Assembly: GCA_009774175.1 (NCBI GenBank)
Contig: VSNG01000002.1
Span: 11,095-75,094 of the forward strand
Length of the DNA: 64,000 nt
Direction: 5' to 3'
Source: Lachnospiraceae bacterium
GTDB taxonomy: Bacteria > Bacillota > Clostridia > Lachnospirales > Lachnospiraceae
Shown: in pieces, positions 3,343 through 62,083 of the stretch
Position numbering within the stretch: position 1 is the first letter of the stretch
Layout of the letters: every line of letters starts with the position of its first letter
Position numbers and translations under genes: made by a program
The notes under the pieces: generated by a model
Seen by the model: only the letters and a program-made list of their open reading frames with translations
Told to the model about the DNA's origin: nothing
Databases searched by the model: none

Positions 3343-3348
3343 ATACGA

Positions 3349-4479: not shown

Positions 4480-4509
4480 GTCTGTATCTGACCTTTCCCA
4501 AACGGTGTA

Positions 4510-5454: not shown

Positions 5455-5467
5455 TTTGTTTGCCACC

Positions 5468-6628: not shown

Positions 6629-6713
6629 ATATCTCCTGCGCAGCTTCCTTTCTTTCTGATCCCCTTAGCCCTGGCAAGCCTGGATATCAGATATCAGAAA
6701 AATCCAAAGGCAA

Positions 6714-9972: not shown

Positions 9973-10022
9973 TTTTGCTCCTTAACGCTCCTGTAACCCC
10001 TGAATACCTCCTACTGATTTCA

Positions 10023-13207: not shown

Positions 13208-13229
13208 GTTTTTTCTCCCTCGCCATGAT

Positions 13230-15281: not shown

Positions 15282-15306
15282 AACGTTTCTCCCACGTCAA
15301 AATCTT

Positions 15307-16047: not shown

Positions 16048-16109
16048 AATGCCCTCTCCACATTTCCGTTGCTCCGTCCCCGTACCCGAACATCGTCATA
16101 CATCCGCTT

Positions 16110-18061: not shown

Positions 18062-18072
18062 AATCAACTCTT

Positions 18073-19035: not shown

Positions 19036-19070
19036 TTTCGGCCTTTATCCTTCTTTACATATATTGGATA

Positions 19071-19099
19071 AGTTTACCATACATTATGAAATAATACAA
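19071..19099 (-). promoter_or_regulatory. candidate sigma-A-type promoter in the 76-bp gap upstream of 18073..19035
   Basis: The minus strand reads TTGTAT, a 17-nt spacer, then TG-G-TAAACT (extended -10-like). Sequence match only, with no expression data. Confidence 0.2.
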
Positions 19100-19111
19100 C
19101 TTTCCGCCGCC

Positions 19112-20089: not shown

Positions 20090-20101
20090 TCGTTTTCATC
20101 C

Positions 20102-24269: not shown

Positions 24270-24271
24270 TT

Positions 24272-27690: not shown

Positions 27691-27765
27691 CTCTTCATCC
27701 CGATTCCGAAACCACTGCTCCTGCCAGCGTATTTCAAAATATCCCTTCGTGCAAAAAATGTCCTT

Positions 27766-28806: not shown

Positions 28807-28838
28807 AATTCCTCCCTGTCAAAGCAAGTTTTACGGTC

Positions 28839-29726
28839 TTAGCCGTAAATCAGAGAATAAAGGTCTATGCTGTCAATGTGCTCCCTGTACCAGTCGTATA
28901 ACAGCTTCACCGCCGCGCGCATATCGGTCAGCTCCCATTCGGGCAGCTCCGCCCGTATCCTGTCATTGTTGGCGGTGTACTCATTTGCCCACCCGTCGCT
29001 GCATACAAAAATATCTCCCGGCTTGTCAGCTATATCATTGACTATCTGCGCCAGCTCATAAAGACTTACCCGAACGCCGCTGACCGCATTATAGACATGG
29101 TATTTCGGATGCTCCAGATGCAGAAACAGTTCCACCAGCCGGCAGAAATCGTCAATCCACAGATAATCGAAATAACAGTTTTTCCGAAGGGACAGGGGCA
29201 GCCCCTTTAAGGATTTACAGCAAAGGTTTGAAATATATTTAGTTTTCCAGTATTCATATTTTCCGAAAATTCCAAACAGACGCAGATTATAGATATTCTC
29301 GCTTTTCTCAATCATCTGATTTACGGTATACTTCATCAGTCCGTACTGATCCGTGGGAATCAGGTGGTTCTCAATGTCCTCCTCCGTAACGGACATAATC
29401 GGAAAACGCTTGTCATACTCCGCGCCCGACCCGGCATAAATCATTCTGCCGTATAAATCGGCATGTCTGTAAAAATTCAAAAACATTCTGAGGTTGTAAT
29501 CCAAAATCCTGCTGCCGTCCTTGCTCGGATCCGTTCCGTTCACATAGACGGCAAAATTCAGCACCACATCATAGCGGGTCTTTTGCAGACAGGCCGCGAC
29601 CTGTTCTTCGTCTACGCCGTTTAATTCTCTACTGGAAGGCGCATACACGTCATAGCCCTTCTGCAGCAGATATTCTTTGACATTTCTTCCCACAAACCCG
29701 GAACCGCCGGTCATCAAAATCTTCAT
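28839..29726 (-). CDS. NAD(P)-dependent epimerase/reductase (SDR family)
   Basis: ILMTGGSGFVGRNV Rossmann motif. About 295 aa. ATG 29726 is preferred over 29738 on RBS context (weak). Confidence 0.7.
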   Translation of the reverse strand: MKILMTGGSGFVGRNVKEYLLQKGYDVYAPSSRELNGVDEEQVAACLQKTRYDVVLNFAVYVNGTDPSKDGSRILDYNLRMFLNFYRHADLYGRMIYAGSGAEYDKRFPIMSVTEEDIENHLIPTDQYGLMKYTVNQMIEKSENIYNLRLFGIFGKYEYWKTKYISNLCCKSLKGLPLSLRKNCYFDYLWIDDFCRLVELFLHLEHPKYHVYNAVSGVRVSLYELAQIVNDIADKPGDIFVCSDGWANEYTANNDRIRAELPEWELTDMRAAVKLLYDWYREHIDSIDLYSLIYG

Positions 29727-29779
29727 ACTAATCCCCATTCTTGCTCAGCCTGCGAATTTGGGCGCAAGCACAAATTTGC

Positions 29780-29814
29780 GTGTGAAAAATCTTGCGCATA
29801 TGGATTTTTCACAC
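29780..29814 (-). other. perfect 12-bp stem-loop abutting the stop codon of 29814..30863
   Basis: gtgtgaaaaatc (29780..29791), an 11-nt loop, then gatttttcacac (29803..29814). The arms are exact reverse complements. No U-tract follows on the coding strand. A second, imperfect hairpin follows (gcaaatttg/caaattcgc, one mismatch). Confidence 0.6.
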
Positions 29815-30863
29815 TATCCCCTGTATACTCCTCTGTCCACCATATAATAGTTCTCATACCGCCTGTTGTTTAACAGGCAGGCCAGCACCGAACCGCCGCC
29901 CTGCACCCGGAACAGCGCGTCGCAGGTCGACAGCAGATATGTCTCGATCAAATAATCGACGGCCCGTTCCTCCGTGCTCTGGTGATCCGTCTCAATGTGT
30001 CCGCCTACCCCTTCTTTATAGGGATGCCCTTCCTCGTCAAAATAACGCGGCAGCGTTCTCCCCTCCATATACAGACATTTCTCCCCAAACTCCCGTTTCA
30101 TTCTCTCCGCGTAATATCTGTCGTCAGGAGAAAGGAAAAGATATTCACAGCCAAATTCCCGCATGTACCGATGGGCATACTCGATATATTCGTCAATATT
30201 TAACCCTTTCGGATGATTCACATACATTTCCGTATGCGCCACCTCGCCCCAGTACAGACCGGCGCGCATGCCGATTCCCAGTATTTTACTGCCTCCCGCT
30301 CTGCCAAAGAGGGTTTTTCTTATTTCCTGCGCCCTTTTCAGAATATCGGGCCGAATGCGGATATATTTCGCCATCGCCTCGAAATAGGGCGTATACATCT
30401 CATCCGACAGTTCCCTCATTTGTTTCCAGTCCACACTGCCGTAGGGCTGTCCCTTATCCGGCGCCAGAATCACACGGCTGCTCTGATATACGTCCTCCAG
30501 AGAATAGCCGGGCGCCGGCTGCTCAAAATAATACTCCCAAGCGTTTTCCTTTCCTTTGTGCTCCTCATTCTGAACGCCCTTAATATAACAGCGTTTCAAA
30601 TCAACCACGGGTATCCAGCCCCGCTCGGTTGCATACTTGATATTGTTGAGCACAATGCTGACCGTCGTTGCCAGTCCCCAGCTCTGGGGCCACTGCGAAT
30701 AAATCACATAAAACGTCTTATCCTTATTCAGCTCTCCGTAACGGTGCACCCGCATGGCGCGTTTATTTTTATATACAATCTTTATCCGCTGAAACCATTC
30801 GTTATACGCCCGCCTTACGTTTTCCGAAACAAGCTTTCTATATATCCCTAATAAAAAATTCAT
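29814..30863 (-). CDS. hypothetical protein, no confident family (possibly fucosyltransferase-superfamily-like GT)
   Basis: 349-aa ORF with GAAGAGG before ATG 30863. No transmembrane segment. The C-terminal segment YLLSTCDALFRVQGGGSVLACLLNN is loosely reminiscent of the GT11/GT23-type terminal motif. Confidence 0.35.
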   Translation of the reverse strand: MNFLLGIYRKLVSENVRRAYNEWFQRIKIVYKNKRAMRVHRYGELNKDKTFYVIYSQWPQSWGLATTVSIVLNNIKYATERGWIPVVDLKRCYIKGVQNEEHKGKENAWEYYFEQPAPGYSLEDVYQSSRVILAPDKGQPYGSVDWKQMRELSDEMYTPYFEAMAKYIRIRPDILKRAQEIRKTLFGRAGGSKILGIGMRAGLYWGEVAHTEMYVNHPKGLNIDEYIEYAHRYMREFGCEYLFLSPDDRYYAERMKREFGEKCLYMEGRTLPRYFDEEGHPYKEGVGGHIETDHQSTEERAVDYLIETYLLSTCDALFRVQGGGSVLACLLNNRRYENYYMVDRGVYRG

Positions 30864-30963
30864 CTAATACCTCTTCGCCTATCCCTATTTCTTTCCAGTA
30901 TAACACAAATGTCTGCATAATTCTTCCACTTTATCTACAGATACCCATGCGGCCTCATTATCT

Positions 30964-31668
30964 CTAATCGGAAATCATCATATACGCCTGCAAGTATTCT
31001 TTGATCGTTTCTTTGGAATTAAACATCATCACATCAATAATTGACAAATTCGGTTGAAATTCATTGTCAAACTGTTGGTATACAATATTCTGCGTTTTTA
31101 CGAAATTTAACCGCAGGCCATGTTCCCGGAATGCCTCATAGGAATACAATTCCCGGCCGCCTATCGCATTATAGTACTCTGTCGCGCCCAACAGCTTGCA
31201 TATCGCCAGAACCTTATCCTGGCCTCTCAGGGTATTGTCCTTTTTCAGGTCGGAAGACATAATCAACCCGGTCTTTATATCCAAATAGTTTCCTATCACC
31301 TCAAACGAATGCTTGATATACTTTGCAATATTATCTTCTTCACACCACAGGATCTCTTCTAACATCGGATTCACAATATCATAATAGGGCGCTTTTCTAT
31401 AAGCGCCCTCTATGCTCCTTAAATTCTTGCAGATGACGGCCTCATTGTGATCCACCCGCACTTCATTAATCAGGACATTGGATGAGGAACCCAACATTGG
31501 CACATTAAAATACTTAGGCGCTCCATTCACCAAAATTCTGTTTCTGTTAATCCATCCGCCCTTGATAAAGTTCACATCGTCATAGATCACATACTGATCC
31601 ACAAAATTCATCAACTGCCAATAGCCTATATAAGGCATGAAATAGGGCTGCATAATACCCAGTCTCAC
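30964..31668 (-). CDS. WbqC family protein
   Basis: IMQPYFMPYIGYWQL N-terminus is typical of WbqC-like proteins. GTG start at 31668 is preceded by AGGAGGAG. Confidence 0.8.
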   Translation of the reverse strand: MRLGIMQPYFMPYIGYWQLMNFVDQYVIYDDVNFIKGGWINRNRILVNGAPKYFNVPMLGSSSNVLINEVRVDHNEAVICKNLRSIEGAYRKAPYYDIVNPMLEEILWCEEDNIAKYIKHSFEVIGNYLDIKTGLIMSSDLKKDNTLRGQDKVLAICKLLGATEYYNAIGGRELYSYEAFREHGLRLNFVKTQNIVYQQFDNEFQPNLSIIDVMMFNSKETIKEYLQAYMMISD

Positions 31669-31684
31669 TCGACTCCTCCTGCTT

Positions 31685-32794
31685 CTAGCGTTTACACCTA
31701 ATCACTATACTGCATATCCGTTCCACATCTCTTAAGTCCAGATCCGCATAAAGAGGCAACGTCAACACCCTTTGGCTGATCAGCTTCGCCATCGGCGTAT
31801 TCTCCACGTTATATTTCCCATGAAAGCAGTCAAACGTATTCGTCAGCGGATAAAAATACTTCCGCGCGCCGATATTCTCACGTTCGAGGGCTTCCTGCAC
31901 CTCGTTCCGATCTGCACCAAATTTTTTTTCATCTATGATTATCGGAAAATACGCGTAATTCGTATACACGCCTTCCTGCAGGCTGTTGAGCCGCAATCCC
32001 TTTACGCCCTCCAGCCGTTCCCGGTAATATGAAACTACCTTCTCCCGTCTCTCCCGGTTTTCCTTCAAATGTTTCAGGTTGCAGAGGCCCATAGCCGCGC
32101 AAAATTCATTCATCTTCGCATTGGCTCCCACACCCTCAACCGTCTCCTCATCACGGATTCCAAAATTCTTCAACTGATATAGCGTTCTGCCAAGAGCCGG
32201 ATCCCGGTAACAGCAGGCTCCTCCTTCAATGGTGTTGAACACTTTCGTGGCATGAAAACTAAAACAGGAGGCGTCGCCAAACTGTCCCACCGCCCTATCC
32301 TTATAGCGGACACCAAAAGCATGGGCCGCGTCGTAGAGCACCTTTAAATGATATTTATGCGCAATCCTCTCTATTTCCTCCACATCGCATATATTCCCAT
32401 AGACATGCACCGGCAGGATCGCCGAGGTTCTGTCCGTGATTAATCCCTCAATCTTAGACGCATCAATCGTAAAATCCCTTTCATTGATGTCGCAAAATAC
32501 CGGTTCCAAACCGTTTCTGATAATGGCGTGGGTGGTCGACGCAAAAGTAAAGGGCGTGGTGATCACTTCCCCCTCAAGTTTCATCGCCTGCACGGTAAGC
32601 TCCAAAGCCATATGGCCGTTGGTAAACAGCTCCACTGAAGGAACCTCCAAATATTCCTGCAGTTTCTCCTGCAGCTCAACATGCTTGCTTCCCATATTGG
32701 TCAACCAGTGCGTCTGCCAGAGCTCCCTGATCTCTTCCACGTATTCGTCCAACTCCGGCATCGACGATCTTGTCACATTAATTCTATCCGACAT
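31685..32794 (-). CDS. DegT/DnrJ/EryC1/StrS family PLP-dependent sugar aminotransferase
   Basis: NGHMALEL, DAAHAFG, SFHATKVFNTIEGG (Schiff-base Lys). ATG 32794 is preferred; an alternative GTG at 32812 would form a GTGA overlap. Confidence 0.85.
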   Translation of the reverse strand: MSDRINVTRSSMPELDEYVEEIRELWQTHWLTNMGSKHVELQEKLQEYLEVPSVELFTNGHMALELTVQAMKLEGEVITTPFTFASTTHAIIRNGLEPVFCDINERDFTIDASKIEGLITDRTSAILPVHVYGNICDVEEIERIAHKYHLKVLYDAAHAFGVRYKDRAVGQFGDASCFSFHATKVFNTIEGGACCYRDPALGRTLYQLKNFGIRDEETVEGVGANAKMNEFCAAMGLCNLKHLKENRERREKVVSYYRERLEGVKGLRLNSLQEGVYTNYAYFPIIIDEKKFGADRNEVQEALERENIGARKYFYPLTNTFDCFHGKYNVENTPMAKLISQRVLTLPLYADLDLRDVERICSIVIRCKR

Positions 32795-32808
32795 TTTTTT
32801 CCGGCCTT

Positions 32809-34596
32809 TCACGCATCCTCAAATATCTCTTTTTTATCCTTGGCAGTAATCTGTTTATCCTTCACTTCGTAGATCAAGTCGCACTTTCTGACGGTGGTAA
32901 GCCTGTGCGCCACTATTATGAGCGTTTTATAGCCTTGCAGCGCCTCAATCGCCTTCATCACTTCCGATTCCGTCTCATTGTCCAAAGCTGCCGTAGCCTC
33001 ATCTAACACCAAAACGTCCGGATTGCGGTATAGGGCTCTTGCAATCGCCAGTCTCTGTCTCTGTCCTCCGGAGAAACGCACGCCACGTTCTCCCACTTTA
33101 GTATCCAAGCCATGTGGCAGCTTTCTAATAAAATCATCCAGCTGCGCAATCTTTAAGGCCTGCCAAACCTTTTCGTCGTCAATTCTTGTCTTTTTTTCTC
33201 CAAAGGCAATGTTATGGCGAACCGTATCGTCTATGATAAACGTGGCCTGCGGCACATATCCGATAATTCGGTTCCACTGATCGCCCAAATCTTCTATGTC
33301 AATGCCATCCATCAGGATCTGACCCTCTGTCGGCTTTAACAGTGCCAAAATGATGTCGGACACCGTGGTCTTCCCGGCTCCGGAGGCGCCGATAAAGGCA
33401 ATGGACTCTCCCTTTTTGATGGTAAAATTCACATTTTCCAACACATTTTCCTCTGCCTCCGGATACCGAAAGCTGACCCCTTGCAAAGCAATCTCCCCCT
33501 GAAGCTGTACATCGGTATACTTTTTCTTCAGTTCAGTTTTTGTCTGCTCCTCCTGTTCTAACTGTTTTACCTGCCGCACTGTCTCATAACAGGCGCCCAA
33601 TTGAGCGGTACTCATGGTAATCGTATTAATCCCGCTCGTGATTGCCCCCAACGCCGGCAGAATACGGAACGCGCCCGCCGCAATCGTCGACAGCTGTGCA
33701 ATCAGCTGCGTTACGTTACTGGTGTTTCCCATTTGTACCGCTACCGCCACTAGAATCCCGGTAATACAGATCATTTCAATCAGGTATGCAGGCACCGTAG
33801 TTCCCATATCCACTTTTACGGACACACTGCTGTACTTCGCTTTGACGTCCCCGTACTCCTTAATGAAATATTCCTGTTTGTTCATCACCAGAACTTCTTT
33901 ATGTCCCTGAATCGCCTCCATGGCAACTTGATTCATCTCACACATCAGATCTCTTCTGATAATTCCGTTTTTACTCATGGACTTTCTGTACAGCAGCTGA
34001 ATCACAAGCAGACAGAGCAACGCAAGCAGCAATAAGACCAATGCCATCTGCACAGATTGCATCATAATATAAGCGCCGATACACAAAATCGTCAATAACT
34101 TCATTAGCGACGTAAAAAGAGTCTTTAAGATGCCGTAAATACTGGACGCATCCCCTGAAATCCCGTTAATCAGGCGGGATGTATTGTTTTGCACAAAGAA
34201 AAGATACCCTTGTTTCATATAGGCTTCTAACACCCTGACACCCAATTCTCTCTGTACCATATAGGAATATTTGGCGGAAACCCAACTGTAAAATGTAAAA
34301 TACACGGTCTTTGCCAGATAAATAGCAATAACGCTTCCGCAGACAAACCAGATCACCTTAAGATCGGTATCCAGATGGAGTAATTTCACAAAGGGAACCA
34401 TATACCATCTGTTACGCACGCCCTTAATATCCAGCATCATATCCAACACCGGCATGATCACCGCAACGCCAAGCGTCTCTATAAGAGCCGCCGCCACACT
34501 CATAAGCAAGATATACACCGCATATCTTTTCTGCTTTTTCGTCAGAATATATAACAGTTTGTGCAAAACATCCTTCGCTTTTCTAAACTCATTCAT
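32809..34596 (-). CDS. ABC transporter, fused permease/ATP-binding half-transporter (MsbA/PglK type exporter), second copy
   Basis: Walker A GASGAGKTT, signature FSGGQRQR, Walker B LVLDEATAALD. ATG 34596 is preceded by GAAGGGA. The N-terminal 34 codons in the track overlap the upstream gene and are rejected. Confidence 0.9.
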   Translation of the reverse strand: MNEFRKAKDVLHKLLYILTKKQKRYAVYILLMSVAAALIETLGVAVIMPVLDMMLDIKGVRNRWYMVPFVKLLHLDTDLKVIWFVCGSVIAIYLAKTVYFTFYSWVSAKYSYMVQRELGVRVLEAYMKQGYLFFVQNNTSRLINGISGDASSIYGILKTLFTSLMKLLTILCIGAYIMMQSVQMALVLLLLALLCLLVIQLLYRKSMSKNGIIRRDLMCEMNQVAMEAIQGHKEVLVMNKQEYFIKEYGDVKAKYSSVSVKVDMGTTVPAYLIEMICITGILVAVAVQMGNTSNVTQLIAQLSTIAAGAFRILPALGAITSGINTITMSTAQLGACYETVRQVKQLEQEEQTKTELKKKYTDVQLQGEIALQGVSFRYPEAEENVLENVNFTIKKGESIAFIGASGAGKTTVSDIILALLKPTEGQILMDGIDIEDLGDQWNRIIGYVPQATFIIDDTVRHNIAFGEKKTRIDDEKVWQALKIAQLDDFIRKLPHGLDTKVGERGVRFSGGQRQRLAIARALYRNPDVLVLDEATAALDNETESEVMKAIEALQGYKTLIIVAHRLTTVRKCDLIYEVKDKQITAKDKKEIFEDA

Positions 34597-41181: not shown

Positions 41182-43852
41182 TCATAGCAAGTCTTCCTGT
41201 TTTCTCCTCCGCATCCGTAATCCGCCGCCGGTTCTGTTTTTCAGACATTCCACACCAATAAGCAGTATTCCGATCAAAGACGCCAGAAAGCCCATTTTCT
41301 GCCAAAGCGGGTCGTATACCACCCTGACGTGGTGCATCCCCTCCGTAAGCTTTACCGCGGTAAATCCGATGTTTGCCCGTTCTGTGGAAACCTCAGCCTG
41401 ATCCACATACACCTTCCATGCCCTGTCAAAGGGGATGCTCAGGAAAAGCCAGCCGCCGGACGCATTAATATCTCCTTCCAGATAATTATCCCCATACTCC
41501 AAATTGGTCAGCGCGCGCCGCTGTAATACCGCAAGCGCCTCCCTCGTCTGTTCCATTTCATACCAGTATACGGACATGCTGTCAATATGATACGCCGTGC
41601 CCTGTGCCAGTTCCAAAACGATTTCCTGCTCGGCTTTTTCGATCTTAACCAGCTGATCCTTCTGACCCGTGGTATAAATATTATTTGCATTATGAACCGC
41701 CAGCGTTTTATCGGCAACACGGATTTCTCCTCCTTCTGCCGTTTTTGCCTCCGTTCCTTCCAGATAAAGATATAGTTCCCCTTCCTCAAAATTAAAGGTT
41801 GACAGCTCCTCCTTTATGTGCACAATAATCCTGGCGTCTTTTCCCGCAGTCAGACAACCGTCTTCCTCTTCTATATTGACGTATTCTGTCTCATAATGCA
41901 GCGCCGTAACCGCACTCTCCGTCTCCTCCTCTTTGGAAAGCAGACTTCCCCGCGGATTTTCCAGCACGAGCCCTCTCATCATGGCGCTCTGCCTTTCAAG
42001 CGGCGGCATCCGCAAAAAATCTTCTTCCGAAAGCGCCGACGCATATTGCACCCCAAAGGGCAGCCAGCTGGCATTTTCCACCAATTCCCCATTTTTCTCA
42101 TAGTATTTCACACCTAAAAGCGACTGCAGCGCCTCCCGCCCGTCCAAACCGGCAAGATAATTGATTGTCCGCATTGCCGGAGATATTTTCAAAGCGTCAT
42201 AAAAGGACCAGATATTGCCGTTCATAATACTGTAATATCCCCAGCATCCCCTGTATCCCTGTAGCAGCGCGCCCTGATTTGCCTGCTCCTGCCTGTCAGT
42301 CCGATACCATTCCTCTGTCTGTTCCGTCTCCTCCACAGTCAGCGCAACAGCTTCCATCTCGTCCCTCGACATAAAGGAAAGATACAGTTCCTGTCCGCCA
42401 ATCTGATAAGGCCCCTCCAAAAAGATCATATTCAGCATTAAATTAACAAGCAGCGCTGCCACCAGCCTTTTCCTGCGTCTTACGCCATCCGAAAGGAGCG
42501 TCCAGATACAAAACGCCGTCACCCCGACACAGGCAACCGTTCTGAGTTTATCCTGCTGCACCATGTAGTGATAGCTCATGGAGCAGACAAAAACAGCAAT
42601 GGCGGATGCCATTCTCCTTTTACCCACCTTCTCCTCTCCATGCTCAATAAATAAAATCACCGCATAGGCGATGCCTAAATAGATGGCATACACCCATCTT
42701 GTATTGGGATAGGAAAAGCCGTTCATCATGCTCCACACAAAGGGACTGGCGTAAGCGACCGTCAAAAGCGCCGAGTAAACGCGTTCTCTTTTATTATGAC
42801 CGAGCCAGCACCGGATGACGGCCAGAAACGCAGCAAAGGAAATACCCAGAGACACCGCAAACATGGCAGATTTCTTATGTATAAACAGATTTTCAAGCTT
42901 TAGCAGAAGCTCCTGCACCGTCCAATACAGATACGGGCCTCCGATAATACCCGTTTCCATTCTTGCGCTCAAAAGAAATCCCCTGATCACGGGAAACAGT
43001 ATCGCGCCGGAAAGCAAAATTCCCATCAGATAGTATTTGGAAACGCAAAGCGCTTTTCGGGGAAGTCCCCGCAAATTCTTTGGATACCTGATTAAATATT
43101 CTGCCAGCGCATAGACAAAAACAAGAATTGTTTGAATATACAGAAAATAAAAACTACAACATGCCTGTAACGCAATGAGGAGCGAGAGTTTTACCCCCCC
43201 CCCTCATTTTTTCGTCATTTTCAGTCAAACTCCCCGCGGGAATAAATTTTTCCACCTGTATCAGCAGCAGCGGAAAAATATAGGCCGCATTCAAAATTTG
43301 ATAAAACTGTAACCCATTTGGCAGGGCAAACGCGGAAAAAACATAAAGAACTGCTCCCAGTACAGACAAAACCGTATCTTTTCCATGTCTTCTGCAAAAC
43401 AAAAGCATGGCGGCTCCGCAAAGCCAGAGCCGCAGAATCAGGGTAAATTCATACAGACGAACCGCGCCCTTCCCCACCGCGAATACGGAAAGCAGATTAA
43501 GCGGATCTCCAAATCCGTTAAAATTCAGCGGAGAAATCACATCGCTTCCCAGGCCTATGGAAAAATCATACAGGCGAACGCTTCCTGTAGAAAGGAAGCG
43601 CCGCAGCAGCTTCCCAAAATATAGAAACGTCGGATAATCCTGTCCCGGCGCATCCACATTATAAATAAATGATCTGCCGTTTATTACGTGAAATAATATG
43701 CCCACCCCGAAAAAAACAAAAAACAGTGCACTATACCATCCAAAGGGCAGCCATTTTTCTCTTTTGCTCTCTATCTTCATATCAGATTCTATCCTCTCAC
43801 TTTCCATTGCCTGGGCTCTCTCGAACCTCCGCCCCTTAAACGCTTCTCGCAC
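41182..43852 (-). pseudogene. YfhO-family GT-C glycosyltransferase, split into two frames by a G10 tract (phase-OFF or frameshifted)
   Basis: The N-terminal fragment (43154..43852) carries a YfhO-like start (DAPGQDYPTFLYF, YDFSIGLGSDVISPLN, GDPLNLLSVF). The C-terminal fragment (41182..43074, TTG start in the track) ends with the YfhO-like FLSIPFDRAWKVYVDQAEV...HHVRVVYDPLWQKMGF. The 630-codon frame is open back to the tract. Likely true starts are ATG 43780 or 43807. Confidence 0.8.
43194..43203 (-). repeat. G10 homopolymer (C10 on plus strand) at the frame break of the YfhO-family gene; part of the 16-nt element AGGGGGGGGGGTAAAA (43189..43204)
   Basis: Counted directly: c at 43194-43203, flanked by a (43193) and t (43204). 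The 16-mer is identical to 147..162. Confidence 0.9.
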
Positions 43853-47333: not shown

Positions 47334-49016
47334 TCAGAAATATTTCCTGACCATGGCCAGCACCGTGACCGCCAGGCTCTTTTCCTCCACGCTGCCCTTA
47401 GCAAGAAGAAGTCCGATATCTCTTTGAAGCTCCTCGTCCAATACCGAATGCTTCATGGTATCTGCGGCATAATCCGCAAAATATTTCTGTATGCCCGCGT
47501 CCCTCTCATACCAGTAATCTATGGGATTCATGTTATCCCGGTTCTCAATGCGGGCAGCGGCGCAAAATTTCTGCCACAACAGCCTCTGCGCGGTCTTCAT
47601 CATCCGAAAGGGAATATGACTCTCTTTGGGTTTCACGCCGCCCCACTTTTCCCAGCCAAATTCCGCCGCCTGAGGATATTTTTCATTCAGCCACCGCAAA
47701 TAGATATGGTGATGATTCCTGTAGTCAAAGGGAATGGAAAATGCCACGTCCAGCAGATCCACGTCCATAAAGGGCGACGCAGTCTCTATATACTGCTGTC
47801 TGATCAGGTAAGAGGACGACGCCCCCAGCATTCCTCTTGTATAGATGCCAAACATCTCCTGACAGGGATATTCCTCCAGAATTTTTTCATCAAAGGAATA
47901 CTGCAGACGCTCCGAATGCGCATTCTGCCCAAACACGGGCTTCCCGCAGCTCAACGCCTTATCCCGGTACAAAGTTCCCAGAACAGCGTCCCCGATCATG
48001 CCCGTATGCTCCATGCCAAAGGACGTCGTATCAATCAGCTCAAGCAGGCGTCTTCCTCCCGTCATGCCCATATACAGGGCAGCACCGTTATTCTGGGAGG
48101 TCATCTCGTCGATATCATACATCCACTTCCCGTCATCCAACGGTTTATAAAGATACTCGTGTCCGAGATGCAGCGCAATCTGCCTTGCGATCTTCTCATC
48201 CCGGTATCCGTCCCGACAGTAAGTAACATTGACCTGATCCGTATAGCCAAGCTCGTGAGCCACCCAGGAAACCATACGGCTGTCCAGACCGCCGCTCAGG
48301 TCCACCAGATGACGATAGCCATACTCCCTGTCCTTCTCAAACTCACGCCTCACCGCCTCGCGAAAGGCTGCGTCGATCCTCTCCACAGCCTCCGCCTCGG
48401 ACATGATCTGAGGCTTATCCTGTATGAAATGATATCTGGAAACAACCGTCTGGCCGCCCCCGACCCGCAGATATTTGCCCGGCAGAAGACGATGAATCTG
48501 TCTGACAAACGTAATATCATCTATCATATAGCCGTAGGTAAGCATATACCGCGCCGCCAGCGGCTGAAAATCAACAGACAGACCATTGTATTTCAGCACT
48601 TCCACCATATCGTCCACACGGTCGGAAACCATCCACCTATCGCCGTCCACATAGTAATATACCGGCCTGACTGCAATCTGATCCGTATAGACAAGCAGTT
48701 CCTTCGTATTACAATCGTACAGATAGCCGCAGAAACCGCCTCTGAGTTTCAAAAGAGCGTCTTCGGCATTCTCCGCAAGAGCGCGGGTAAACGCTTCCGG
48801 CCAGTCTGCGCCGTCTGTTTGCCCATAATCCGCCTTATTGTAGGCATAACCGTTAAAAAAACCAACCTTTCCCTCGTCTTCCCGGAAAAACTGATCATCC
48901 GAAAATTTATTTAACAAATTCTGATAATGACGGCACTCCCCCGCCATCTGCACCTCACCCAGACATTCAATATTCAGATTCTTTGACGCCAAAAAGCCGT
49001 AACTCTTTTTCTTCAT
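47334..49016 (-). CDS. asparagine-synthase-family protein lacking the N-terminal Cys nucleophile (amidoligase-like)
   Basis: PP-loop LSGGLDSRMV in the synthetase domain. The N-terminus MKKKSYGFLAS has no Cys2. The track start at 49055 is TTG. ATG 49016 follows the upstream stop at 49033. Confidence 0.75.
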   Translation of the reverse strand: MKKKSYGFLASKNLNIECLGEVQMAGECRHYQNLLNKFSDDQFFREDEGKVGFFNGYAYNKADYGQTDGADWPEAFTRALAENAEDALLKLRGGFCGYLYDCNTKELLVYTDQIAVRPVYYYVDGDRWMVSDRVDDMVEVLKYNGLSVDFQPLAARYMLTYGYMIDDITFVRQIHRLLPGKYLRVGGGQTVVSRYHFIQDKPQIMSEAEAVERIDAAFREAVRREFEKDREYGYRHLVDLSGGLDSRMVSWVAHELGYTDQVNVTYCRDGYRDEKIARQIALHLGHEYLYKPLDDGKWMYDIDEMTSQNNGAALYMGMTGGRRLLELIDTTSFGMEHTGMIGDAVLGTLYRDKALSCGKPVFGQNAHSERLQYSFDEKILEEYPCQEMFGIYTRGMLGASSSYLIRQQYIETASPFMDVDLLDVAFSIPFDYRNHHHIYLRWLNEKYPQAAEFGWEKWGGVKPKESHIPFRMMKTAQRLLWQKFCAAARIENRDNMNPIDYWYERDAGIQKYFADYAADTMKHSVLDEELQRDIGLLLAKGSVEEKSLAVTVLAMVRKYF

Positions 49017-49032
49017 TCCCAATCCTTTGATT

Positions 49033-49413
49033 TTATCTTTCCCCGGAATCCGCAAACAATGCCGCTGTCTCCACGCCGTCAGGATAGTTGATCAGTACGG
49101 CCCGGTTGGCTCCCCAAAACACAAAAATGCTTCCCGCTGCCGCCGCGCTGGCTCCGCTGTCTATCGCACGCCTGCAATCCTCAAGATTTCCCGCGCCGCC
49201 GCTGATACCTACAATACAGTCATATTTCTTACCTTTTCCCGAATTTTTCACCTCTGCGCCGAAAGCTGCAACGTCAAAATTCTTACGCTTTTCTTCCACC
49301 TCCCGCAGCTTTTTTCCTGCGCCTTTGCAATGATTGCAGACTCCCTGCTCATCGAACACAATTTCCGGGTCTGATGTATCCATAACGCAATGACTGCACA
49401 TCTGATATTCCAT
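49033..49413 (-). pseudogene. in-frame fusion relic: N-terminus of N-acetyl-sugar amidotransferase (WbuX/WbpG type) joined to C-terminus of HisF-like cyclase (WbuZ type)
   Basis: MEYQMCSHCVMDTSDPEIVFDEQGVCNHC...KKYDCIVGISGG matches the zinc-ribbon plus PP-loop start of the amidotransferase. It is followed directly by AGNLEDCRRAIDSGASAAAAGSIFVFWGANRAVLINYP, which matches a HisF/WbuZ C-terminus. Only 126 codons. GGAGG lies 5 nt before ATG 49413. Confidence 0.6.
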
Positions 49414-49472
49414 GATAACCTCCACACTACGCTGCTGCCCTGCAGCTTCACAGTTCACTCCGCTTCACTGCA

Positions 49473-50582
49473 TCAAATCAGTCCCGTAATTTTATCAATC
49501 TCGCTCTCCTGCAAATAGGCATGTAACGGAAGGGAAAGACATGTCCCGCTCACCTTTTGGGCCGTACCGCAGTCGGTCCTGTATGTCTGCGTATCGGCGA
49601 ACGCATGCAGCGCATGCATGGGCTTCTTATAATAAATCATACTGGGAATCCCGGCCTCCTTTAACCGACCCATGGCTTCCCCCCGCATCTTCTCATCCGC
49701 AAACTGCACCGTATACTGGGCCCAGCTCGAATAGTATCCCGGTAGAATCTCCGGCGTCTTCACCTTACCCCGCAGCCGCTCCGTATAAGCGCCCGCCAGA
49801 CGGTTACAGTTCTCCAGCTCTTCATCAAAAAAGGCCAGCTTTTCGCTCAGCACTGCCGCCTGTATCGTATCCAGTCTGGAATTCATGCCAAGGCGGATAT
49901 TGTCATACTTGTCCTCCCCCTTGCCGTGCACCTTAAAAGAGCGGACAAGCTGCGCCCACTCGTCGTTATCCGTAAAGACCGCGCCGCCGTCGCCATAACA
50001 GCCAAGAGGTTTTACCGGGAAAAAGGAGGTTGTGGAAATATCCCCGAAGCTGCACGCTCTTTTCTCTCCGATCCTGCCGCCGAATCCCTGGGCGCCATCC
50101 TCCAGCAAAAGCAGCCCCTGCTCCTGCGTAATCCTGCGAATCTTCTCATATTCGGCGGGCTGTCCGAACAAGTCCACTGCAATAACCGCCCGGGGCTTCA
50201 GCCTGCCCTCGGCTTTCACGCCGGCCACCGCCTCTTCAAGCGCCTGCGGCGACATATTAAAGGTATCCGCATCAATATCCACAAAAACCGGCGTCGCGCC
50301 TGTCCAAGGCACCACCTCGGCTGTGGAAAAGAAGGTAAAGTCCGGGACAAATACGGCGTCGCCCTCTCCCACGCCCCAGGCCATCAGCCCAAGCAGCAGC
50401 GCATCCGTTCCGTTTGCGCAGGAAATGCAGTGCTTTACACCGACATATTCCGCCAGCTGTTTTTCCAGCCTCGTTACCGGCTCTCCGCCGATAAACTGTG
50501 CGCTTGCCACGGTCTTTGCGATAGCGCCGTCTATGGCTTCCTTATGACGCATATACTGTGTTTTCAAATCTTTAAATTCCAT
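49473..50582 (-). CDS. DegT/DnrJ/EryC1/StrS family PLP-dependent sugar aminotransferase (WbpE/ArnB-like)
   Basis: NGTDALLLGL, DGAQGFGG, SFFPVKPLGCYGDGG (catalytic Lys). ATG 50582 follows the upstream stop at 50599. The 82 extra codons in the track overlap wecB and are rejected. Confidence 0.9.
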   Translation of the reverse strand: MEFKDLKTQYMRHKEAIDGAIAKTVASAQFIGGEPVTRLEKQLAEYVGVKHCISCANGTDALLLGLMAWGVGEGDAVFVPDFTFFSTAEVVPWTGATPVFVDIDADTFNMSPQALEEAVAGVKAEGRLKPRAVIAVDLFGQPAEYEKIRRITQEQGLLLLEDGAQGFGGRIGEKRACSFGDISTTSFFPVKPLGCYGDGGAVFTDNDEWAQLVRSFKVHGKGEDKYDNIRLGMNSRLDTIQAAVLSEKLAFFDEELENCNRLAGAYTERLRGKVKTPEILPGYYSSWAQYTVQFADEKMRGEAMGRLKEAGIPSMIYYKKPMHALHAFADTQTYRTDCGTAQKVSGTCLSLPLHAYLQESEIDKITGLI

Positions 50583-50598: not shown

Positions 50599-51669
50599 TT
50601 AAATAAAATTTCTCTCCCGCAGCGCCTGTACCATCTTCGCCGCCGCGTGCCCGTCCCCGTAAAACTTCGGCCGCTTTTCAATCGCCACACGCTGCGCCTG
50701 AGACGCAAAGCGCAAAGCGTCCGCCACGCTCTCTTCGCTCTGCGGATCGACCTTATGCAGCCAATCCACCCGGGCCAGATCTCCCCATATATCCATATCC
50801 AGCATAAACAGGCATTTCGCCCCCGCAAAGGAAGACTCCTTGGACACGCCGCCGGAATCCGTCAGGATCAGCTTCGCGCTCTGCATAAGCTTCACCATCT
50901 CCACATATCCTATGGGATCCGTGATATCCAGATTGGAAACCGCCTGCGCCCTCTCCCACAGACCGTAATCCTGCAGGCATTTTCTGGTGCGGGGATGCAT
51001 GGGGCAGATCACCCGATCCCCCAATCGCTCCACCAGCCGTAAAATACTCTCCATACGCGTCCTGTCGGCAGTATTCTCCTGCCTGTGCCAGGTCATGACA
51101 ATCGGCTCTTCCTGCGCCTTTTCCTCCGCCGATTGTCCGGCAATGGCAAGATAGGTGTCAAACATGATATCGCCCGTCATAAAGGCGCGATCCTCCAACC
51201 CTTCCCTGCGCAGATTGTCCATGGAAATCTGATCCGGGCTAAACAGCACGTCCGAAAGATGATCCGTGGCGATCCGATTGCACTCCTCCGGATTGGACTT
51301 GTGCCCCACTCTTGGGCCCGCCTCCACATGGGCAATCGGAATGCACAGCTTCGCCGCAACCACCGCGCCGGCAAGGGTGGTATTCGTGTCCCCGTACAAA
51401 ACCACAAGCCGCGGCTTTATGCGAAGCAGCTCCTCCTCGATGCCGACCATAGCCTTTGCCGTCACCTGCGCATGGCTTCCGCCCCCTGCCGCCAGATTGA
51501 CACAGGGCGCGGGAATTTGCAGCTCCTGAAAAAACACATCCGACATATTCTCGTCGTAATGCTGTCCGCTGTGAATAATATTCTGTTCATACCCTTCCTT
51601 ATCCAGCTCCCGATACAGCGCGGCCAGCTTGATAAACTGGGGTCTGTTTCCTACAATATGTGTAATCAT
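50599..51669 (-). CDS. wecB: UDP-N-acetylglucosamine 2-epimerase (non-hydrolysing), WecB/WbpI family
   Basis: GNRPQFIKLA, HSGQHYD, VLYGDTNTTLAG, HVEAG. Confidence 0.9.
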   Translation of the reverse strand: MITHIVGNRPQFIKLAALYRELDKEGYEQNIIHSGQHYDENMSDVFFQELQIPAPCVNLAAGGGSHAQVTAKAMVGIEEELLRIKPRLVVLYGDTNTTLAGAVVAAKLCIPIAHVEAGPRVGHKSNPEECNRIATDHLSDVLFSPDQISMDNLRREGLEDRAFMTGDIMFDTYLAIAGQSAEEKAQEEPIVMTWHRQENTADRTRMESILRLVERLGDRVICPMHPRTRKCLQDYGLWERAQAVSNLDITDPIGYVEMVKLMQSAKLILTDSGGVSKESSFAGAKCLFMLDMDIWGDLARVDWLHKVDPQSEESVADALRFASQAQRVAIEKRPKFYGDGHAAAKMVQALRERNFI

Positions 51670-57916: not shown

Positions 57917-59806
57917 CTACTCCGTCCCGGAAGCCATATGGCTTTTTCCGTAAACCGTCAGATCCGCAAGCACCGGCTCCGACCCGTCAAACAGCCTGCC
58001 GTCCTGAGTATACCAGCCTTCAAACACCCGGCCCCCATCCACATCCCCCGGATCGCCAATGGGCATGCTCTCAATGGTTTCTCCCCGGATCACGCTCACA
58101 TACATATCCTTCGTAAATTCTTCTGCAATAAAGTGAACCGTACACAGCTCCTTTTTCTCAATCCAGACTTCGTCAAGAAATTCCTTTCTGGCCGTCAGAA
58201 AATCCCGGATCCTCCAGACTTCCGCATTATAATCGAGGTCGTCCCCATATATTTCCTTCCATCGGATCCGATCCATATTTGCAGATACATAGATTTCCGA
58301 TACATACTCCTCTATTTTGCTCTCCTGAATCACCTGAAAATAATCAGAGAAAAACTCCTGGTAACACCTGGACACCGCCTGTCTGAAATCAGGATGGGTA
58401 TTCAGATACCAGAAAAGCGTGGTACTGCCGTCCCTCTGGGTCAGATAGCACAGATCCCGCGTCGTCCCGTCAATTCCGTACAATCTGCCGTAGGCCTTGT
58501 CATAATCCCACACAGGGCCGGCAAACAGGCCGGCATCCTGCGGCTTATAGAAGAAGGAGCTGGTAGCGCCGCCTCCCTTGTTCTTGCTCAGCTCCTCCAC
58601 AATATATTTCCGGGCGTAGGACTCTAGATCCAGATAGGCCGGATAGGAAAGGCCCGTATCAGGATTGACGCCGTCCGTTTGCGTGACGGCTTTCTCCATT
58701 GCGTTCATCAGACCGCTGATATAGTCTACTTCCGCCCGGGACGCATATTTCGGGCTTTTGATGGTATACTGGTCGCCAAGGAGAGTTGTCTCAAATCCGC
58801 TGACCTCCTCATTGTACTTATCCGACACATCCCGTTCCAGCAGATAACCACCCGTCAGATCCACCGGTTCTGCAGCCAGCTCTACTCCCTTTTTCATTCC
58901 CGTGTCAAAACGGGCAAGCTCTTTCATATTCTTATTGCGCTTTTTATTCTCCTCCCCCAGATCGTTTATGGGAATCCGCTCCGAATCTATCTCCACCTTT
59001 TCACATAGCTGATACATGCCGTGATACCTGTGGTTGACATAGAGGTCTATATACTGCGATTCGGGAGAGCCCTCCATCCCTGCGGCAATTCCCATCTCAT
59101 AGGTGATTTTATTGCGAATATAGGAATGGTCCTCCACATTGCTTAACAGAATCCAGTTATCCGCGCTTCCCATCCCAAACAGGTCCGTCCTGTTTTTCAG
59201 CCGGATGCCGTAGGATTTCTTCGGATAGAACCAAGTGGAATTTCCACGCCCTGAAATGCGTTCCAGCTTATCCACGCACACGATGCTCCCGCCCGCGTCA
59301 AAAAGAACGATTTTCCCTCTCTCCTCATAATCCTTGTCCGCATCCAGCATTTCCATGGAACCGCTCTGCGTCTCAAGAAACAGGGCGGGCAGATTGGCGG
59401 AATGCATAATCACCATATTGCGCCCGGCAATTCGGTTCCCGGCCCTGTCATAAAAGCTCAGCTCATAGGGTTCGTCGCATACAAGGGGCGCGATATCTTC
59501 GCCGCTTTTCAAAGAAATTTCCTCTTCTCCCCTGCGAAAGACCGCCCGGTCAGCTCCTGTAAAGGAAATTTTCACATTTCCGGCATTGGCATAGGAGGGC
59601 AGGAAGAGATAGTCCGTCTGTTCCTGTGTAAAACAGCGGATTTCCTGTTCCGGCGCGGTACTGCCGACAACGAAGCGCATACTTTCCAGACAGTCCCCGT
59701 CAGCCTGCCTTTTTTCATATGCCGCCCTTTCCCCCGCCGCTGCCGCAGCGATCATCAGTGTAAGCAATACCCCAAGTATTGCGTATCGTTTCGTCCTGTA
59801 TGTCAT
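57917..59806 (-). CDS. CotH kinase-family protein, signal-anchored, copy 1
   Basis: GRGNSTWFYPKKSYGIRLKNR, ADNWILLSNVEDHSYIRNKITY, YIDLYVNHRYHGMYQLCEK. N-terminal hydrophobic anchor AILGVLLTLMIAAAAA. C-terminal FEGWY repeat-like module. Confidence 0.85.
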   Translation of the reverse strand: MTYRTKRYAILGVLLTLMIAAAAAGERAAYEKRQADGDCLESMRFVVGSTAPEQEIRCFTQEQTDYLFLPSYANAGNVKISFTGADRAVFRRGEEEISLKSGEDIAPLVCDEPYELSFYDRAGNRIAGRNMVIMHSANLPALFLETQSGSMEMLDADKDYEERGKIVLFDAGGSIVCVDKLERISGRGNSTWFYPKKSYGIRLKNRTDLFGMGSADNWILLSNVEDHSYIRNKITYEMGIAAGMEGSPESQYIDLYVNHRYHGMYQLCEKVEIDSERIPINDLGEENKKRNKNMKELARFDTGMKKGVELAAEPVDLTGGYLLERDVSDKYNEEVSGFETTLLGDQYTIKSPKYASRAEVDYISGLMNAMEKAVTQTDGVNPDTGLSYPAYLDLESYARKYIVEELSKNKGGGATSSFFYKPQDAGLFAGPVWDYDKAYGRLYGIDGTTRDLCYLTQRDGSTTLFWYLNTHPDFRQAVSRCYQEFFSDYFQVIQESKIEEYVSEIYVSANMDRIRWKEIYGDDLDYNAEVWRIRDFLTARKEFLDEVWIEKKELCTVHFIAEEFTKDMYVSVIRGETIESMPIGDPGDVDGGRVFEGWYTQDGRLFDGSEPVLADLTVYGKSHMASGTE

Positions 59807-59829: not shown

Positions 59830-61722
59830 CTACACTCCATGACTTTTTCCATACACGATAATATCTTCAAAAATCGGGACAGTACAGTCAAATACCTCGC
59901 CGTCCTCCGTAAACCAGCCGTCAAACATCTGGTCACCGCTCACTTTTCCCGGCTCGCTTCCCGGCAGCCTCTCAAGCGTCTCTCCCGCAGCCACACTCAC
60001 ATACCGTTCCTCGCCGGTCTCCGAAACAAAGGTCACTGTGCGCAGTTCTCCCTGCCCCGTCCAGACTTCATCCAGAAACTGTTTTCGTTCCAGCAGAAAG
60101 GTTTTGATCCGCTCCAGTTCATACGGATAATCCAGAGGGGCGCTGCCTTCCTCTTTCCATCTGATCTGATCCATAGCAATGGAAGAAAGAATCTCCTGCG
60201 CATACTCGTCCACCTTCTCCTCTGCAGCCTCCTGCATATAATCCGAGAAAAAATCCTCATAGCAGTCAGACACCGCCTCTCTGAAATCCGAATGCGCATA
60301 CAGCCTCCAGAAAAGCGTAGTGCTGTTGGTATCCCGCAGCATCAGATAGCACAAATCCCGGGACGATTCGTTAATTCCCGTCAGGCTTGCGTAGGCCTTA
60401 TCATAATCCCATACGGGGCCGGCAAACAGCTTTGTGCTGATCGCCTCCTGCGGCTTATAAAAAAAAGAACTGGTGGCCCCGGCACCATTATTTTTTGTCA
60501 GCTCTTCCAAAATATACTTCTGCACGAAGGAATGCAGATCAATATACTCCGTATAGTGCATCCCGGTATCGGGATTAATACCGTCTTCGGCAAGCAGCGC
60601 CTTTTCCATATCGTTTATGAAGGCGCTGATATAATCCACCTGAACCTCTGACGCATGGGCGGGCTCCTTTATCGTATACAGATCTCCCAGATTCCCCGAG
60701 ACAAAGCCGCTGATCTCCTCCCAGTATTTTTCCGGCACATCCCGTTCCAGAAGATACCCGCCCGTCAGATCATCCGGCTCCGTGACAAGGGCCACTCCCT
60801 TTTTTTCCTCCGTCTCAAAGCGTCCGCATTTATCAAGCTCCCCGTTAAGCCTTTTGTTCTCTCCCTCCAGATCCGCTATGGGGACTCTCTGTTCGTCGAT
60901 TTCCACCTTCTCGCAAAGCTGGTACATCCCATGATAAGTATTATTGATATACAGATCAATATACTGCGATTCCGGCGAACCCTCCATTCCCGCCGCAACG
61001 GCCATGTCGTAGGTAATTTTATTGCGGATATAGGCGGGATCTTCCACATTGCTTAACAGAATCCAGTTGTCCGCGCTTCCCATGCCGAACAGATCCGTCC
61101 TGTTTTTGAGCCGGATCCCGTAGGACTTCTTCGGATGCGCCCAGGTGGAGTTTCCCCGCCCCGAAATCCGATTAAGCCTGTCTGCGCACACCACCTTCCC
61201 CGCCGCATCAAACAGGACAATTCTGCCCTTTTCCTCATAGCTTTTATCCGCATCCAGCATTTCCATGGAGCCACTGTCCGTTTCCAGAAAAGCGGCCGGC
61301 AGATTGGCGGAATGCATAATGACCATACACTGCTCGGCCATTCTCTCGCCCTTCCTGTTGCAAAAATACATACGGTACTTCTCATGATACGCAAGGGCCC
61401 CGATGCTCTCGCCGTTTGTAAACGGCACCTCTGATTTTTCGTCGGCAAAGACAACCTGATCCGCCCCCACGAAAGAAATCCTGACATCGTCTGCCTCCGC
61501 ATAGGACGGTAAAAACAGATACTGCACATTTTCCCTCTCGTCGGTATAACAGAAAAGCTTCTGCTCCGATGAGGAATTACCGATTACAAAATAAAGGTTT
61601 CCCATATAGTTCCCGCTTGTCTGAGCCTGTCTGTATGCCGCTTTTTCCATAAGCGCCACAGTCATAGCCAGAAGAACGGGCAAAATCCACAGCAAACCGC
61701 GCCGTTTTATCCTATCCGTCAT
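59830..61722 (-). CDS. CotH kinase-family protein, signal-anchored, copy 2 (tandem paralog)
   Basis: GRGNSTWAHPKKSYGIRLKNR, ADNWILLSNVEDPAYIRNKITY. N-terminal anchor LLWILPVLLAMTVAL. C-terminal FDGWF module. The start is uncertain (ATG 61722 or 61734). Confidence 0.8.
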   Translation of the reverse strand: MTDRIKRRGLLWILPVLLAMTVALMEKAAYRQAQTSGNYMGNLYFVIGNSSSEQKLFCYTDERENVQYLFLPSYAEADDVRISFVGADQVVFADEKSEVPFTNGESIGALAYHEKYRMYFCNRKGERMAEQCMVIMHSANLPAAFLETDSGSMEMLDADKSYEEKGRIVLFDAAGKVVCADRLNRISGRGNSTWAHPKKSYGIRLKNRTDLFGMGSADNWILLSNVEDPAYIRNKITYDMAVAAGMEGSPESQYIDLYINNTYHGMYQLCEKVEIDEQRVPIADLEGENKRLNGELDKCGRFETEEKKGVALVTEPDDLTGGYLLERDVPEKYWEEISGFVSGNLGDLYTIKEPAHASEVQVDYISAFINDMEKALLAEDGINPDTGMHYTEYIDLHSFVQKYILEELTKNNGAGATSSFFYKPQEAISTKLFAGPVWDYDKAYASLTGINESSRDLCYLMLRDTNSTTLFWRLYAHSDFREAVSDCYEDFFSDYMQEAAEEKVDEYAQEILSSIAMDQIRWKEEGSAPLDYPYELERIKTFLLERKQFLDEVWTGQGELRTVTFVSETGEERYVSVAAGETLERLPGSEPGKVSGDQMFDGWFTEDGEVFDCTVPIFEDIIVYGKSHGV

Positions 61723-62083
61723 GTTCCCTGCCATCCTTTTCCAGATCCCGCACACGTTTATCCAAAATGGCAAGCTCCTGAATCAGCGTCCGAAGCTTGC
61801 GGTTTTGTCTGGAAGCAATCGAGGTCAGCGACAACAGGATCAATACAATAAAACCGATGCAGAAAAGAAACAGGCCGTTCATATTGTCCTGAATGCCGAA
61901 AAGCCGGATGGTACGCGTCAAAAGCTCCGGCACCACCACCAGGATCCCCATAACGGCTCCCGCCACCAGCCATAAAAGCGTATACTTTAAATTGAGCGCC
62001 TTCTGTTTCAAAAAATACAGGATCACTATGAAATAGCTGATCACCACAATGATCAGCGTTATGCGCAAATGACTCGGTATCAT
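61712..62083 (-). CDS. DUF2304-family small membrane protein
   Basis: 123 aa with four hydrophobic helices and a charged C-terminal tail (RKLRTLIQELAILDKRVRDLEK). ATGA overlap with the upstream GT2, which is the usual GT2+DUF2304 pairing. Confidence 0.65.
   Translation of the reverse strand: MIPSHLRITLIIVVISYFIVILYFLKQKALNLKYTLLWLVAGAVMGILVVVPELLTRTIRLFGIQDNMNGLFLFCIGFIVLILLSLTSIASRQNRKLRTLIQELAILDKRVRDLEKDGREHDG

Follow-up and report, generated by a model that had tools for sequence, protein, structure and literature searches.

A 126-Codon wbuX-hisF Fusion ORF as the Very Probable Scar of a Short-Repeat Deletion in a Lachnospiraceae Acetamidino-Modification Cassette

Location and Composition of the Fusion ORF

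The window, which is the whole stretch of 64,000 nucleotides analyzed here, carries a surface-glycan gene cluster that includes an ORF of 126 codons plus stop on the minus strand, with the stop codon at 49033-49035. Its translation is MEYQMCSHCVMDTSDPEIVFDEQGVCNHCKGAGKKLREVEEKRKNFDVAAFGAEVKNSGKGKKYDCIVGISGGAGNLEDCRRAIDSGASAAAAGSIFVFWGANRAVLINYPDGVETAALFADSGER. The ORF, its parts, and its neighbors are as follows.

49033..49413, minus strand: fusion ORF, wbuX 5' part plus hisF/aglZ 3' part (ORF list, translation, and NCBIfam)
49203..49413, minus strand: wbuX remnant, codons 1-70 and the first base of Ser71 (99.0-99.3% identity to conspecific wbuX; TIGR03573)
49196..49202, minus strand: junction, single remaining copy of the 7-nt repeat GCGGCGG (ORF nt 212-218; bases 2-3 of Ser71, Gly72, and bases 1-2 of Gly73)
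49033..49195, minus strand: hisF-like (AglZ/WbuZ) remnant, last 53 codons, Ala74-Arg126, with the native stop (99.4% identity to conspecific hisF; NF038364)
49419..49423, minus strand: GGAGG Shine-Dalgarno of wbuX, retained, 5 nt upstream of the ATG (read from the sequence)
49473..50582, minus strand: DegT/PseC/LegC-type aminotransferase, 369 aa, intact, upstream; in the same place in all intact loci (NCBIfam and Pfam)
50599..51669, minus strand: WecB-type non-hydrolysing UDP-GlcNAc 2-epimerase, 356 aa, in the same conserved block (TIGR00236, 237.6 bits against a cut-off of 210.15)
47334..49016, minus strand: asparagine-synthase-like (asnB-like) amidotransferase, 560-561 aa, intact, downstream; starts 16 nt after the stop of the relic

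The original prediction described the ORF as an amidotransferase N-terminus joined to a HisF-like C-terminus, and the NCBIfam profile search gave significant matches for both halves. Residues 4-74 matched positions 2-71 of the 344 positions of the WbuX profile TIGR03573 (E 3.3e-19, 69.5 bits), and residues 68-113 matched positions 198-244 of the 248 positions of the AglZ/HisF2 profile NF038364 (E 2.1e-12, 47 bits). Both scores are far under the full-length cut-offs, as fragments should be. Pfam returned a weak His_biosynth tail alone (E 0.004); the N-terminal identity is visible with NCBIfam, and Pfam alone would miss it. Among solved structures, the HisF chains 1ka9_F and 2w6r_A align to the fusion at their residues 201-231, and 8wex, deposited as an 'N-acetyl sugar amidotransferase', aligns weakly to the N-terminal part.

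The wbuX remnant contains the four-Cys N-terminal motif (C6, C9, C26, and C29; CxxC...CxxC), identical to that of the intact WbuX allele, and CIVGIS, the start of the PP-loop strand. The identical protein MFG6333866.1, from a Lachnospiraceae MAG, is labeled by NCBI as 'hypothetical protein' and nothing more.

Mapping of the Deletion Against Intact Alleles

Exact look-up of the repaired full-length WbuX led to three intact loci in the same species, L047, L048, and, from GCA_949507155.1, L049. Window positions 59474-49196 align to positions 1-10278 of these loci with 99.0-99.3% identity, and positions 49202-40527 align to positions 12498-21173 with 99.4% identity. The flanks are colinear and are separated by one gap with a 7-nt overlap; contigs L036 and L038 agree. 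The seven junction nucleotides align both to L047 10272-10278, at the Ser-Gly-Gly site of wbuX, and to L047 12498-12504, at the Cys-Gly-Gly site of hisF, and likewise to L036 6976-6982 and 9202-9208. The distance between the two copies (12498 - 10272) is 2,226 bp, or 742 codons, and this segment is missing from the window.

The left GCGGCGG copy encodes Ser71 (bases 2-3)-Gly-Gly of the WbuX PP-loop GISGGVDS, and the right copy lies in IACGGAGN of the HisF-like barrel, where it covers Cys202 (bases 2-3)-Gly-Gly. Since GCGGCGG stands in one and the same codon phase in wbuX and in hisF, joining the two copies preserved the reading frame. The event took wbuX codons 74-370, the whole of hisH (203 codons), hisF codons 1-202, and a 33-aa ORF; the RBS and start codon of wbuX were kept, together with the hisF stop and its native 16-nt spacing to the next gene. 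With a syntenic intact counterpart, a single gap in colinear flanks, and one remaining copy of a direct repeat, the locus has the features of a deletion-derived relic. The ORF is very probably what one deletion of 2,226 bp left of a wbuX-(33-aa ORF)-hisH-hisF(aglZ/wbuZ) acetamidino-modification cassette.

This agrees with the original prediction, according to which a deletion between two SGG-encoding sites took most of wbuX, all of hisH, and most of hisF, with the reading frame and a good RBS preserved. The alignment to intact loci of relatives that it proposed as a check placed the endpoints in the 7-nt repeat and the loss in frame, with GGAGG still ahead of the start codon. The idea of a shared SGG held in part: Gly-Gly is common to both sites, but the hisF side reads ACGGAG, with Cys-Gly-Gly in place of SGG.

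Either of two mechanisms acting on the GCGGCGG copies would account for the deletion: replication slippage or RecA-independent illegitimate recombination. The wbuX site reads GGC in related species, which makes the repeat 9 nt long there. Repeats of 7 nt are common in the cassette, with at least 60 repeat families in 2.7 kb; thus, GCGGCGG explains how the deletion arose, not why that pair served.

Intact Cassette in Conspecifics and Related Species

The conspecific intact order is DegT - wbuX - 33-aa ORF - hisH - hisF - asnB-like, exactly at the position of the fusion. The proteins of this intact cassette score above their cut-offs: WbuX with 292.4 bits over positions 2-344 (cut-off 203.2), HisH with 245 bits (105), and AglZ/HisF2 with 347.7 bits (310). 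For the comparison with other species, 19 loci from GTDB species representatives, nearly all of them Lachnospiraceae MAGs, were anchored on the asnB-like gene and searched by tblastn with reference proteins. In seven species (L016, L018, L019, L021, L022, L023, and L030), DegT - WbuX - HisH - HisF - AsnB-like is uninterrupted, and the cassette has no internal stops. The fusion ORF is syntenic with intact wbuX-hisH-hisF, which stands between the same DegT and asnB-like genes in L047-L049, L036, and these seven species; on this point, too, the original prediction withstood the comparison. A tblastn search of the 64-kb window for a second wbuX, hisH, or hisF returned none apart from the two fragments inside the fusion ORF, and no HisH-type glutaminase matched at E below 1e-6.

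Related species differ in what fills the slot between the DegT and asnB-like genes, a variable module. In three species (L020, L028, and L033; around 9920-10001), the slot is empty and the two genes abut, and in four (L017, L029, L031, and L032) it holds other genes. In L017, the slot encodes a 334-aa protein with weak fucosyltransferase-like matches (8945-9946).

The window has lost the 33-aa ORF (MKKIIKKIVFGCIYLMEDVVHVWHFHIHKQWRP), which overlaps the stop codon of wbuX and precedes hisH. Its positions in the intact loci are as follows.

L016: 8489-8590
L018: 8491
L019: 8421
L021: 8371
L022: 8393
L023: 8477
L030: 8275
L036: 7874-7975
L047: 11170-11271

The ORF is kept at the amino-acid level in all eight intact-cassette species, the most divergent version being that of L023 (MKKLVKKIILGCIYILEDILHIWHFHIYKKWRL). 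It had no match in Pfam or NCBIfam. A fourth component of the acetamidino cassette, so far unrecognised, may be encoded here.

Frequency and Origin of the Fusion Allele

The fusion protein identical to that of the window (P0167; MFG6333866.1) occurs on 20 contigs, and a second version that differs by 2 aa (P0001) occurs on 14. Three single-contig variants bring the total to about 37 contigs, drawn from Logan, ENA, JGI, and NCBI assemblies; some are 134-244 kb long. Exact look-up of the intact WbuX returned at least 1000 contigs and 3004 index blocks. The fusion allele is found in about 1% of the sampled contigs, and the intact cassette is the norm of a very commonly sampled Lachnospiraceae species. 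A word-indexed protein search with the deleted part of WbuX missed both the abundant intact protein and a known 259-aa fragment, and its negatives do not mean absence.

The same collection of contigs bears on whether the fusion exists at all. The junction lies in a short GC-rich repeat, and a 907-bp JGI contig (L046) looks chimeric or recombinant just downstream of it, as could be expected of a chimeric join made by an assembler at a shared k-mer. However, the same junction recurs across about 37 contigs that differ in sample, assembler, and archive of origin; the 7-nt repeat is far shorter than any assembly k-mer; and the deletion contigs have flank SNPs of their own, which mark them as a real lineage. 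Given the many independent assemblies, with contigs of up to 244 kb, an assembly artefact was excluded with near certainty.

The deletion contigs fall into two sub-haplotypes that differ by about 0.9%: that of the window and that of L001-L010. SNPs on both flanks of the junction (left, at distances of 177-365 nt; right, at 272-1118 nt) are common to all deletion contigs and absent from 12 full-length alleles. Since both sub-haplotypes share them, they point to one deletion event, followed by diversification of the lineage. An independent origin of the same deletion on two haplotypes was rejected on these SNPs. The data indicate that the fusion allele is a rare variant of single origin, carried by a minority lineage; in the species at large, the intact cassette is the normal state.

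Over nt 1-230, which include the junction, contig L046 (JGI 3300015207) has 99.6% identity to the window species. Beyond this part, starting at nt 245, it has 93.7% identity to the hisF 3' end and asnB-like gene of another, L021-like species. Either the deletion allele has recombined between species here, or the assembly is chimeric.

Predicted Loss of Activity

The fusion reads GISGGAGNLE at the position where intact WbuX has GISGGVDSCY; the PP-loop SGGxDS is therefore incomplete, and its Asp and Ser are gone. The score of 69.5 bits is well short of the WbuX TIGR03573 cut-off of 203.2. The 47 bits of the C-terminal part are likewise below the thresholds for AglZ/HisF2 (310; NF038364) and WbuZ (299.7; TIGR03572), and the barrel is incomplete: four-fifths of it is gone, and the last beta-alpha units remain. 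The third component of a WbuXYZ/AglXYZ system, a HisH-type glutaminase, is missing from the 64-kb window.

Enzymatic activity is not expected because the product lacks the PP-loop Asp and Ser, the ATP-pyrophosphatase body, and a glutaminase, and has only a partial barrel. Judged from its sequence, the 126-aa product would have no enzymatic activity and is most likely dead. Since the window has no second copy of the cassette, acetamidino formation has presumably been lost. The surface glycan of the deletion strain would then carry an acetamido group where its conspecifics carry an acetamidino group.

The genes that follow appear to be spared. In intact L047, 16 nt separate the end of hisF (12667) from the start of the asnB-like gene (12684), and the spacing after the stop of the relic is the same. 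A search for terminator-like sites on the coding strand around the relic found none. With the native spacing and no terminator, downstream expression is probably unaffected, and the asnB-like and glycosyltransferase genes would still be expressed without polarity.

The relics of the two sub-haplotypes differ by 4 substitutions, of which 2 are nonsynonymous, and both keep the ORF open behind a good RBS. With only 4 substitutions, the open ORF is uninformative on activity either way. Similarly, the relic differs by 2-5 nt only from a 'virtual fusion' of the intact alleles, too few differences to give any power to detect constraint or decay.

The open ORF could nevertheless be read as a functional new small protein, e.g., a zinc-ribbon peptide with a regulatory or dominant-negative role, since none of the roughly 37 contigs, of either sub-haplotype, has lost the open frame, the RBS, or the four-Cys motif. 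We regard this as very unlikely. The in-frame outcome was automatic, given the equal repeat phase at both sites, and half of the substitutions between the sub-haplotypes are nonsynonymous. Conservation of the short protein as such across many genomes would speak for a small-protein family and against the original prediction; however, full-length matches were found only at identities of at least 98%, in one cluster, and the other matches were half-matches in full-size WbuX or HisF. The protein is thus confined to one sublineage of one species, with no cross-species conservation.

Neighboring Genes and the Likely Target Sugar

The top matches of the upstream DegT aminotransferase (49473..50582) are PseC and LegC, both under the cut-off. 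The WecB-like epimerase next to it, which had been named from the sequence beforehand, was confirmed by TIGR00236. Elsewhere in the window, LegB scores 526 bits (cut-off 475), and a NeuC-type epimerase, a NeuB-type synthase, and a NeuD-type acetyltransferase are also above their cut-offs; a PseF-like cytidylyltransferase is present as well. No UDP-sugar 6-dehydrogenase (WbpA-type) or Gfo/Idh/MocA oxidoreductase (WbpB-type) was found among the window ORFs of at least 200 aa.

Two pathways had been suggested for the cassette. The Leg5Am-type pathway gains support from the LegB and NeuC/B/D-type genes, whereas the ManNAc3NAmA-type pathway was set aside as unsupported, since neither a WbpA-type nor a WbpB-type enzyme is encoded among these ORFs. 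A Leg5Am-type target would thus fit the gene content of the window better than ManNAc3NAmA.

The legionaminic-acid-type gene set (LegB, NeuC-type, NeuB-type, and NeuD-type) occupies window positions 22099-32812 on the minus strand. An acetolactate-synthase-like TPP enzyme (25903-27690), an enzyme unusual for such a cluster, lies between the NeuD-type acetyltransferase and a nucleotidyltransferase; a WbqC-like protein and a second DegT aminotransferase come next in the set.

Two other observations concern the same glycan cluster. A YfhO-family membrane protein is split on the minus strand into two ORFs in different frames, 80 nt apart: an N-terminal ORF of 217-232 aa (43154-43852; Pfam YfhO positions 16-163 of 835) and an ORF of 630 aa (41182-43074). 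The identical split is present in the intact-cassette conspecifics L047-L049, and the sister species L011 has no YfhO gene there. Either the gene is a second pseudogene, or it is truly split. In addition, two adjacent CotH-kinase-family proteins of 629 and 647 aa (57917-59806 and 59830-61773, minus strand) are encoded upstream of the glycosyltransferases.

Other wbuX Lesions and the Question of Selection

Other loss-of-function alleles of wbuX, rare and independent of one another and otherwise full-length, occur within the species. Two contigs (L036 and L038) carry Q106* (C316T, CAG to TAG), and one (L012) carries K109* (A325T, AAG to TAG). A -1 frameshift in a T5 run at wbuX nt 455 was found in one contig (L042), and another in a C5 run at nt 634 was found in three (L043-L045), with its 98-aa product on 5. 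In the sister species L011, a 32-bp frameshift deletion in wbuX lies between AGGRGTTCC repeats (10380-10393). Contigs L037, L039, L040, L013, and L035 end exactly at wbuX lesion sites, which suggests within-sample polymorphism that breaks the assemblies.

We considered recurrent selected inactivation of wbuX and withdrew it: the contigs with lesions had been reached via truncated proteins, which is an ascertainment bias, and the gene is intact on at least 1000 contigs. The scattered wbuX lesions are ordinary rare variants and are no demonstration of selection.

Contig L041 (ENA ERZ14230262, 1.7x; 4294-7313) carries wbuX nt 1-505 followed by an unrelated PolyA_pol/CCA-adding enzyme gene, which the window lacks. 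Like the L041 product, a second protein (P0160) diverges after the residues KCRYI. L041 is either a rearrangement breakpoint or a low-coverage chimera; because it and L046 could each be a chimeric assembly, no conclusion rests on either.

The loss itself could be adaptive, with the deletion clade being an antigenic or receptor variant under phage, tailocin, or host-antibody pressure and the in-frame form sparing downstream expression. Several observations are in line with this: the distance between the two sub-haplotypes implies that the clade has persisted for some time, the species has other rare loss-of-function alleles of wbuX, the sister species has its 32-bp frameshift deletion, and the cassette is missing or replaced in seven related species. 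Moreover, the loss of O-antigen monomer genes, wbpG included, gives tailocin resistance in pseudomonads (PMC8319346). However, intact alleles outnumber the deletion roughly 100 to 1, and a few rare loss-of-function variants among thousands of contigs are what mutation-selection balance predicts. The impression that every full-length allele is broken resulted from the ascertainment bias. Overall, we consider an adaptive loss unlikely.

A more specific proposal is that the deletion clade is a natural glycan-variant ('serotype') lineage, held by phage or antibody selection against the acetamidino epitope, in which the in-frame fusion persists by preserving downstream translation and transcription. 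We give it a distinctly low probability. If it were true, then, taken together with the rare wbuX lesions and the absence of the cassette in some sister species, the surface antigenicity of commensals would be switched recurrently at the acetamidino modification.

The favored reading, a rare scar of one deletion, has modest uses of its own. It provides a mapped example of the loss of a surface-glycan modification in a gut commensal, in which one short-repeat deletion took three enzymes and a small ORF. It also corrects an annotation, as the 'hypothetical' MFG6333866.1 can be flagged as a fusion pseudogene. Finally, the deletion and intact alleles, with flanks about 99% identical, form a natural near-isogenic pair for the role of the acetamidino group in phage, antibody, or lectin recognition.

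Comparison with Known Systems

WbuX, WbuY, and WbuZ of the Escherichia coli O145 O-antigen cluster are an N-acetyl sugar amidotransferase and its HisH- and HisF-like partners, proposed to make FucNAm, an acetamidino sugar. The intact conspecific cassette encodes the same three proteins, with WbuX above its cut-off, and residues 1-74 of the relic belong to the WbuX family. The window keeps only WbuX profile positions 2-71 of 344 and no HisH. The intact order here is wbuX-hisH-hisF with the additional conserved 33-aa ORF, and the intact HisF-like protein is a better match to AglZ/HisF2 (348 bits) than to WbuZ (281 bits, under the cut-off of 299.7).

AglX, AglY, and AglZ of Methanococcus maripaludis carry out the acetamidino modification of a ManNAc3NAmA-type sugar in the N-glycan. 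AglZ/HisF2 is the top-scoring family for both the C-terminal part of the relic and the intact conspecific HisF-like protein. That system is archaeal and acts on an N-glycan, whereas the present locus belongs to a bacterial 64-kb surface-glycan cluster, in which the last 53-55 residues of the protein remain. The ancestral cassette belongs to the WbuXYZ/AglXYZ class. The relic falls outside the WbuX, AglZ/HisF2-WbuZ, and three-component definitions, retaining the four-Cys motif alone among the hallmarks of WbuX.

PseA/PtmG-type amidotransferases act in the nonulosonic-acid pathways of Campylobacter and Legionella. WbpG, PseA, and PtmG are of the same enzyme family and have the same role, the conversion of acetamido to acetamidino; the LegB/NeuC/NeuB/NeuD-type genes of the window would fit a Leg5Am-type target. 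WbpG and ManNAc3NAmA of Pseudomonas aeruginosa O5 are covered in PMC8319346, HisF/HisH paralogues of Legionella LPS clusters are listed in PMC3694923, and PMC11340318 describes WbuX, AglZ/HisF2, and HisH genes in a cluster of Sphingomonas. Unlike the WbpG system, the window has no WbpA or WbpB homologue, and the amidotransferase is deleted here.

Deletions between short direct repeats (microhomology) that make in-frame fusion pseudogenes are a well-known class of bacterial gene loss. The present case, with one 7-nt copy left, colinear flanks, and conspecific intact alleles, is not different in kind from that class. The relic is real, rare in its species, of single origin, and biologically ordinary, and it represents no new kind of system. 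Its one curiosity among microhomology deletions is that the repeat encodes, in the same phase, the Gly-Gly of two unrelated phosphate-binding loops.
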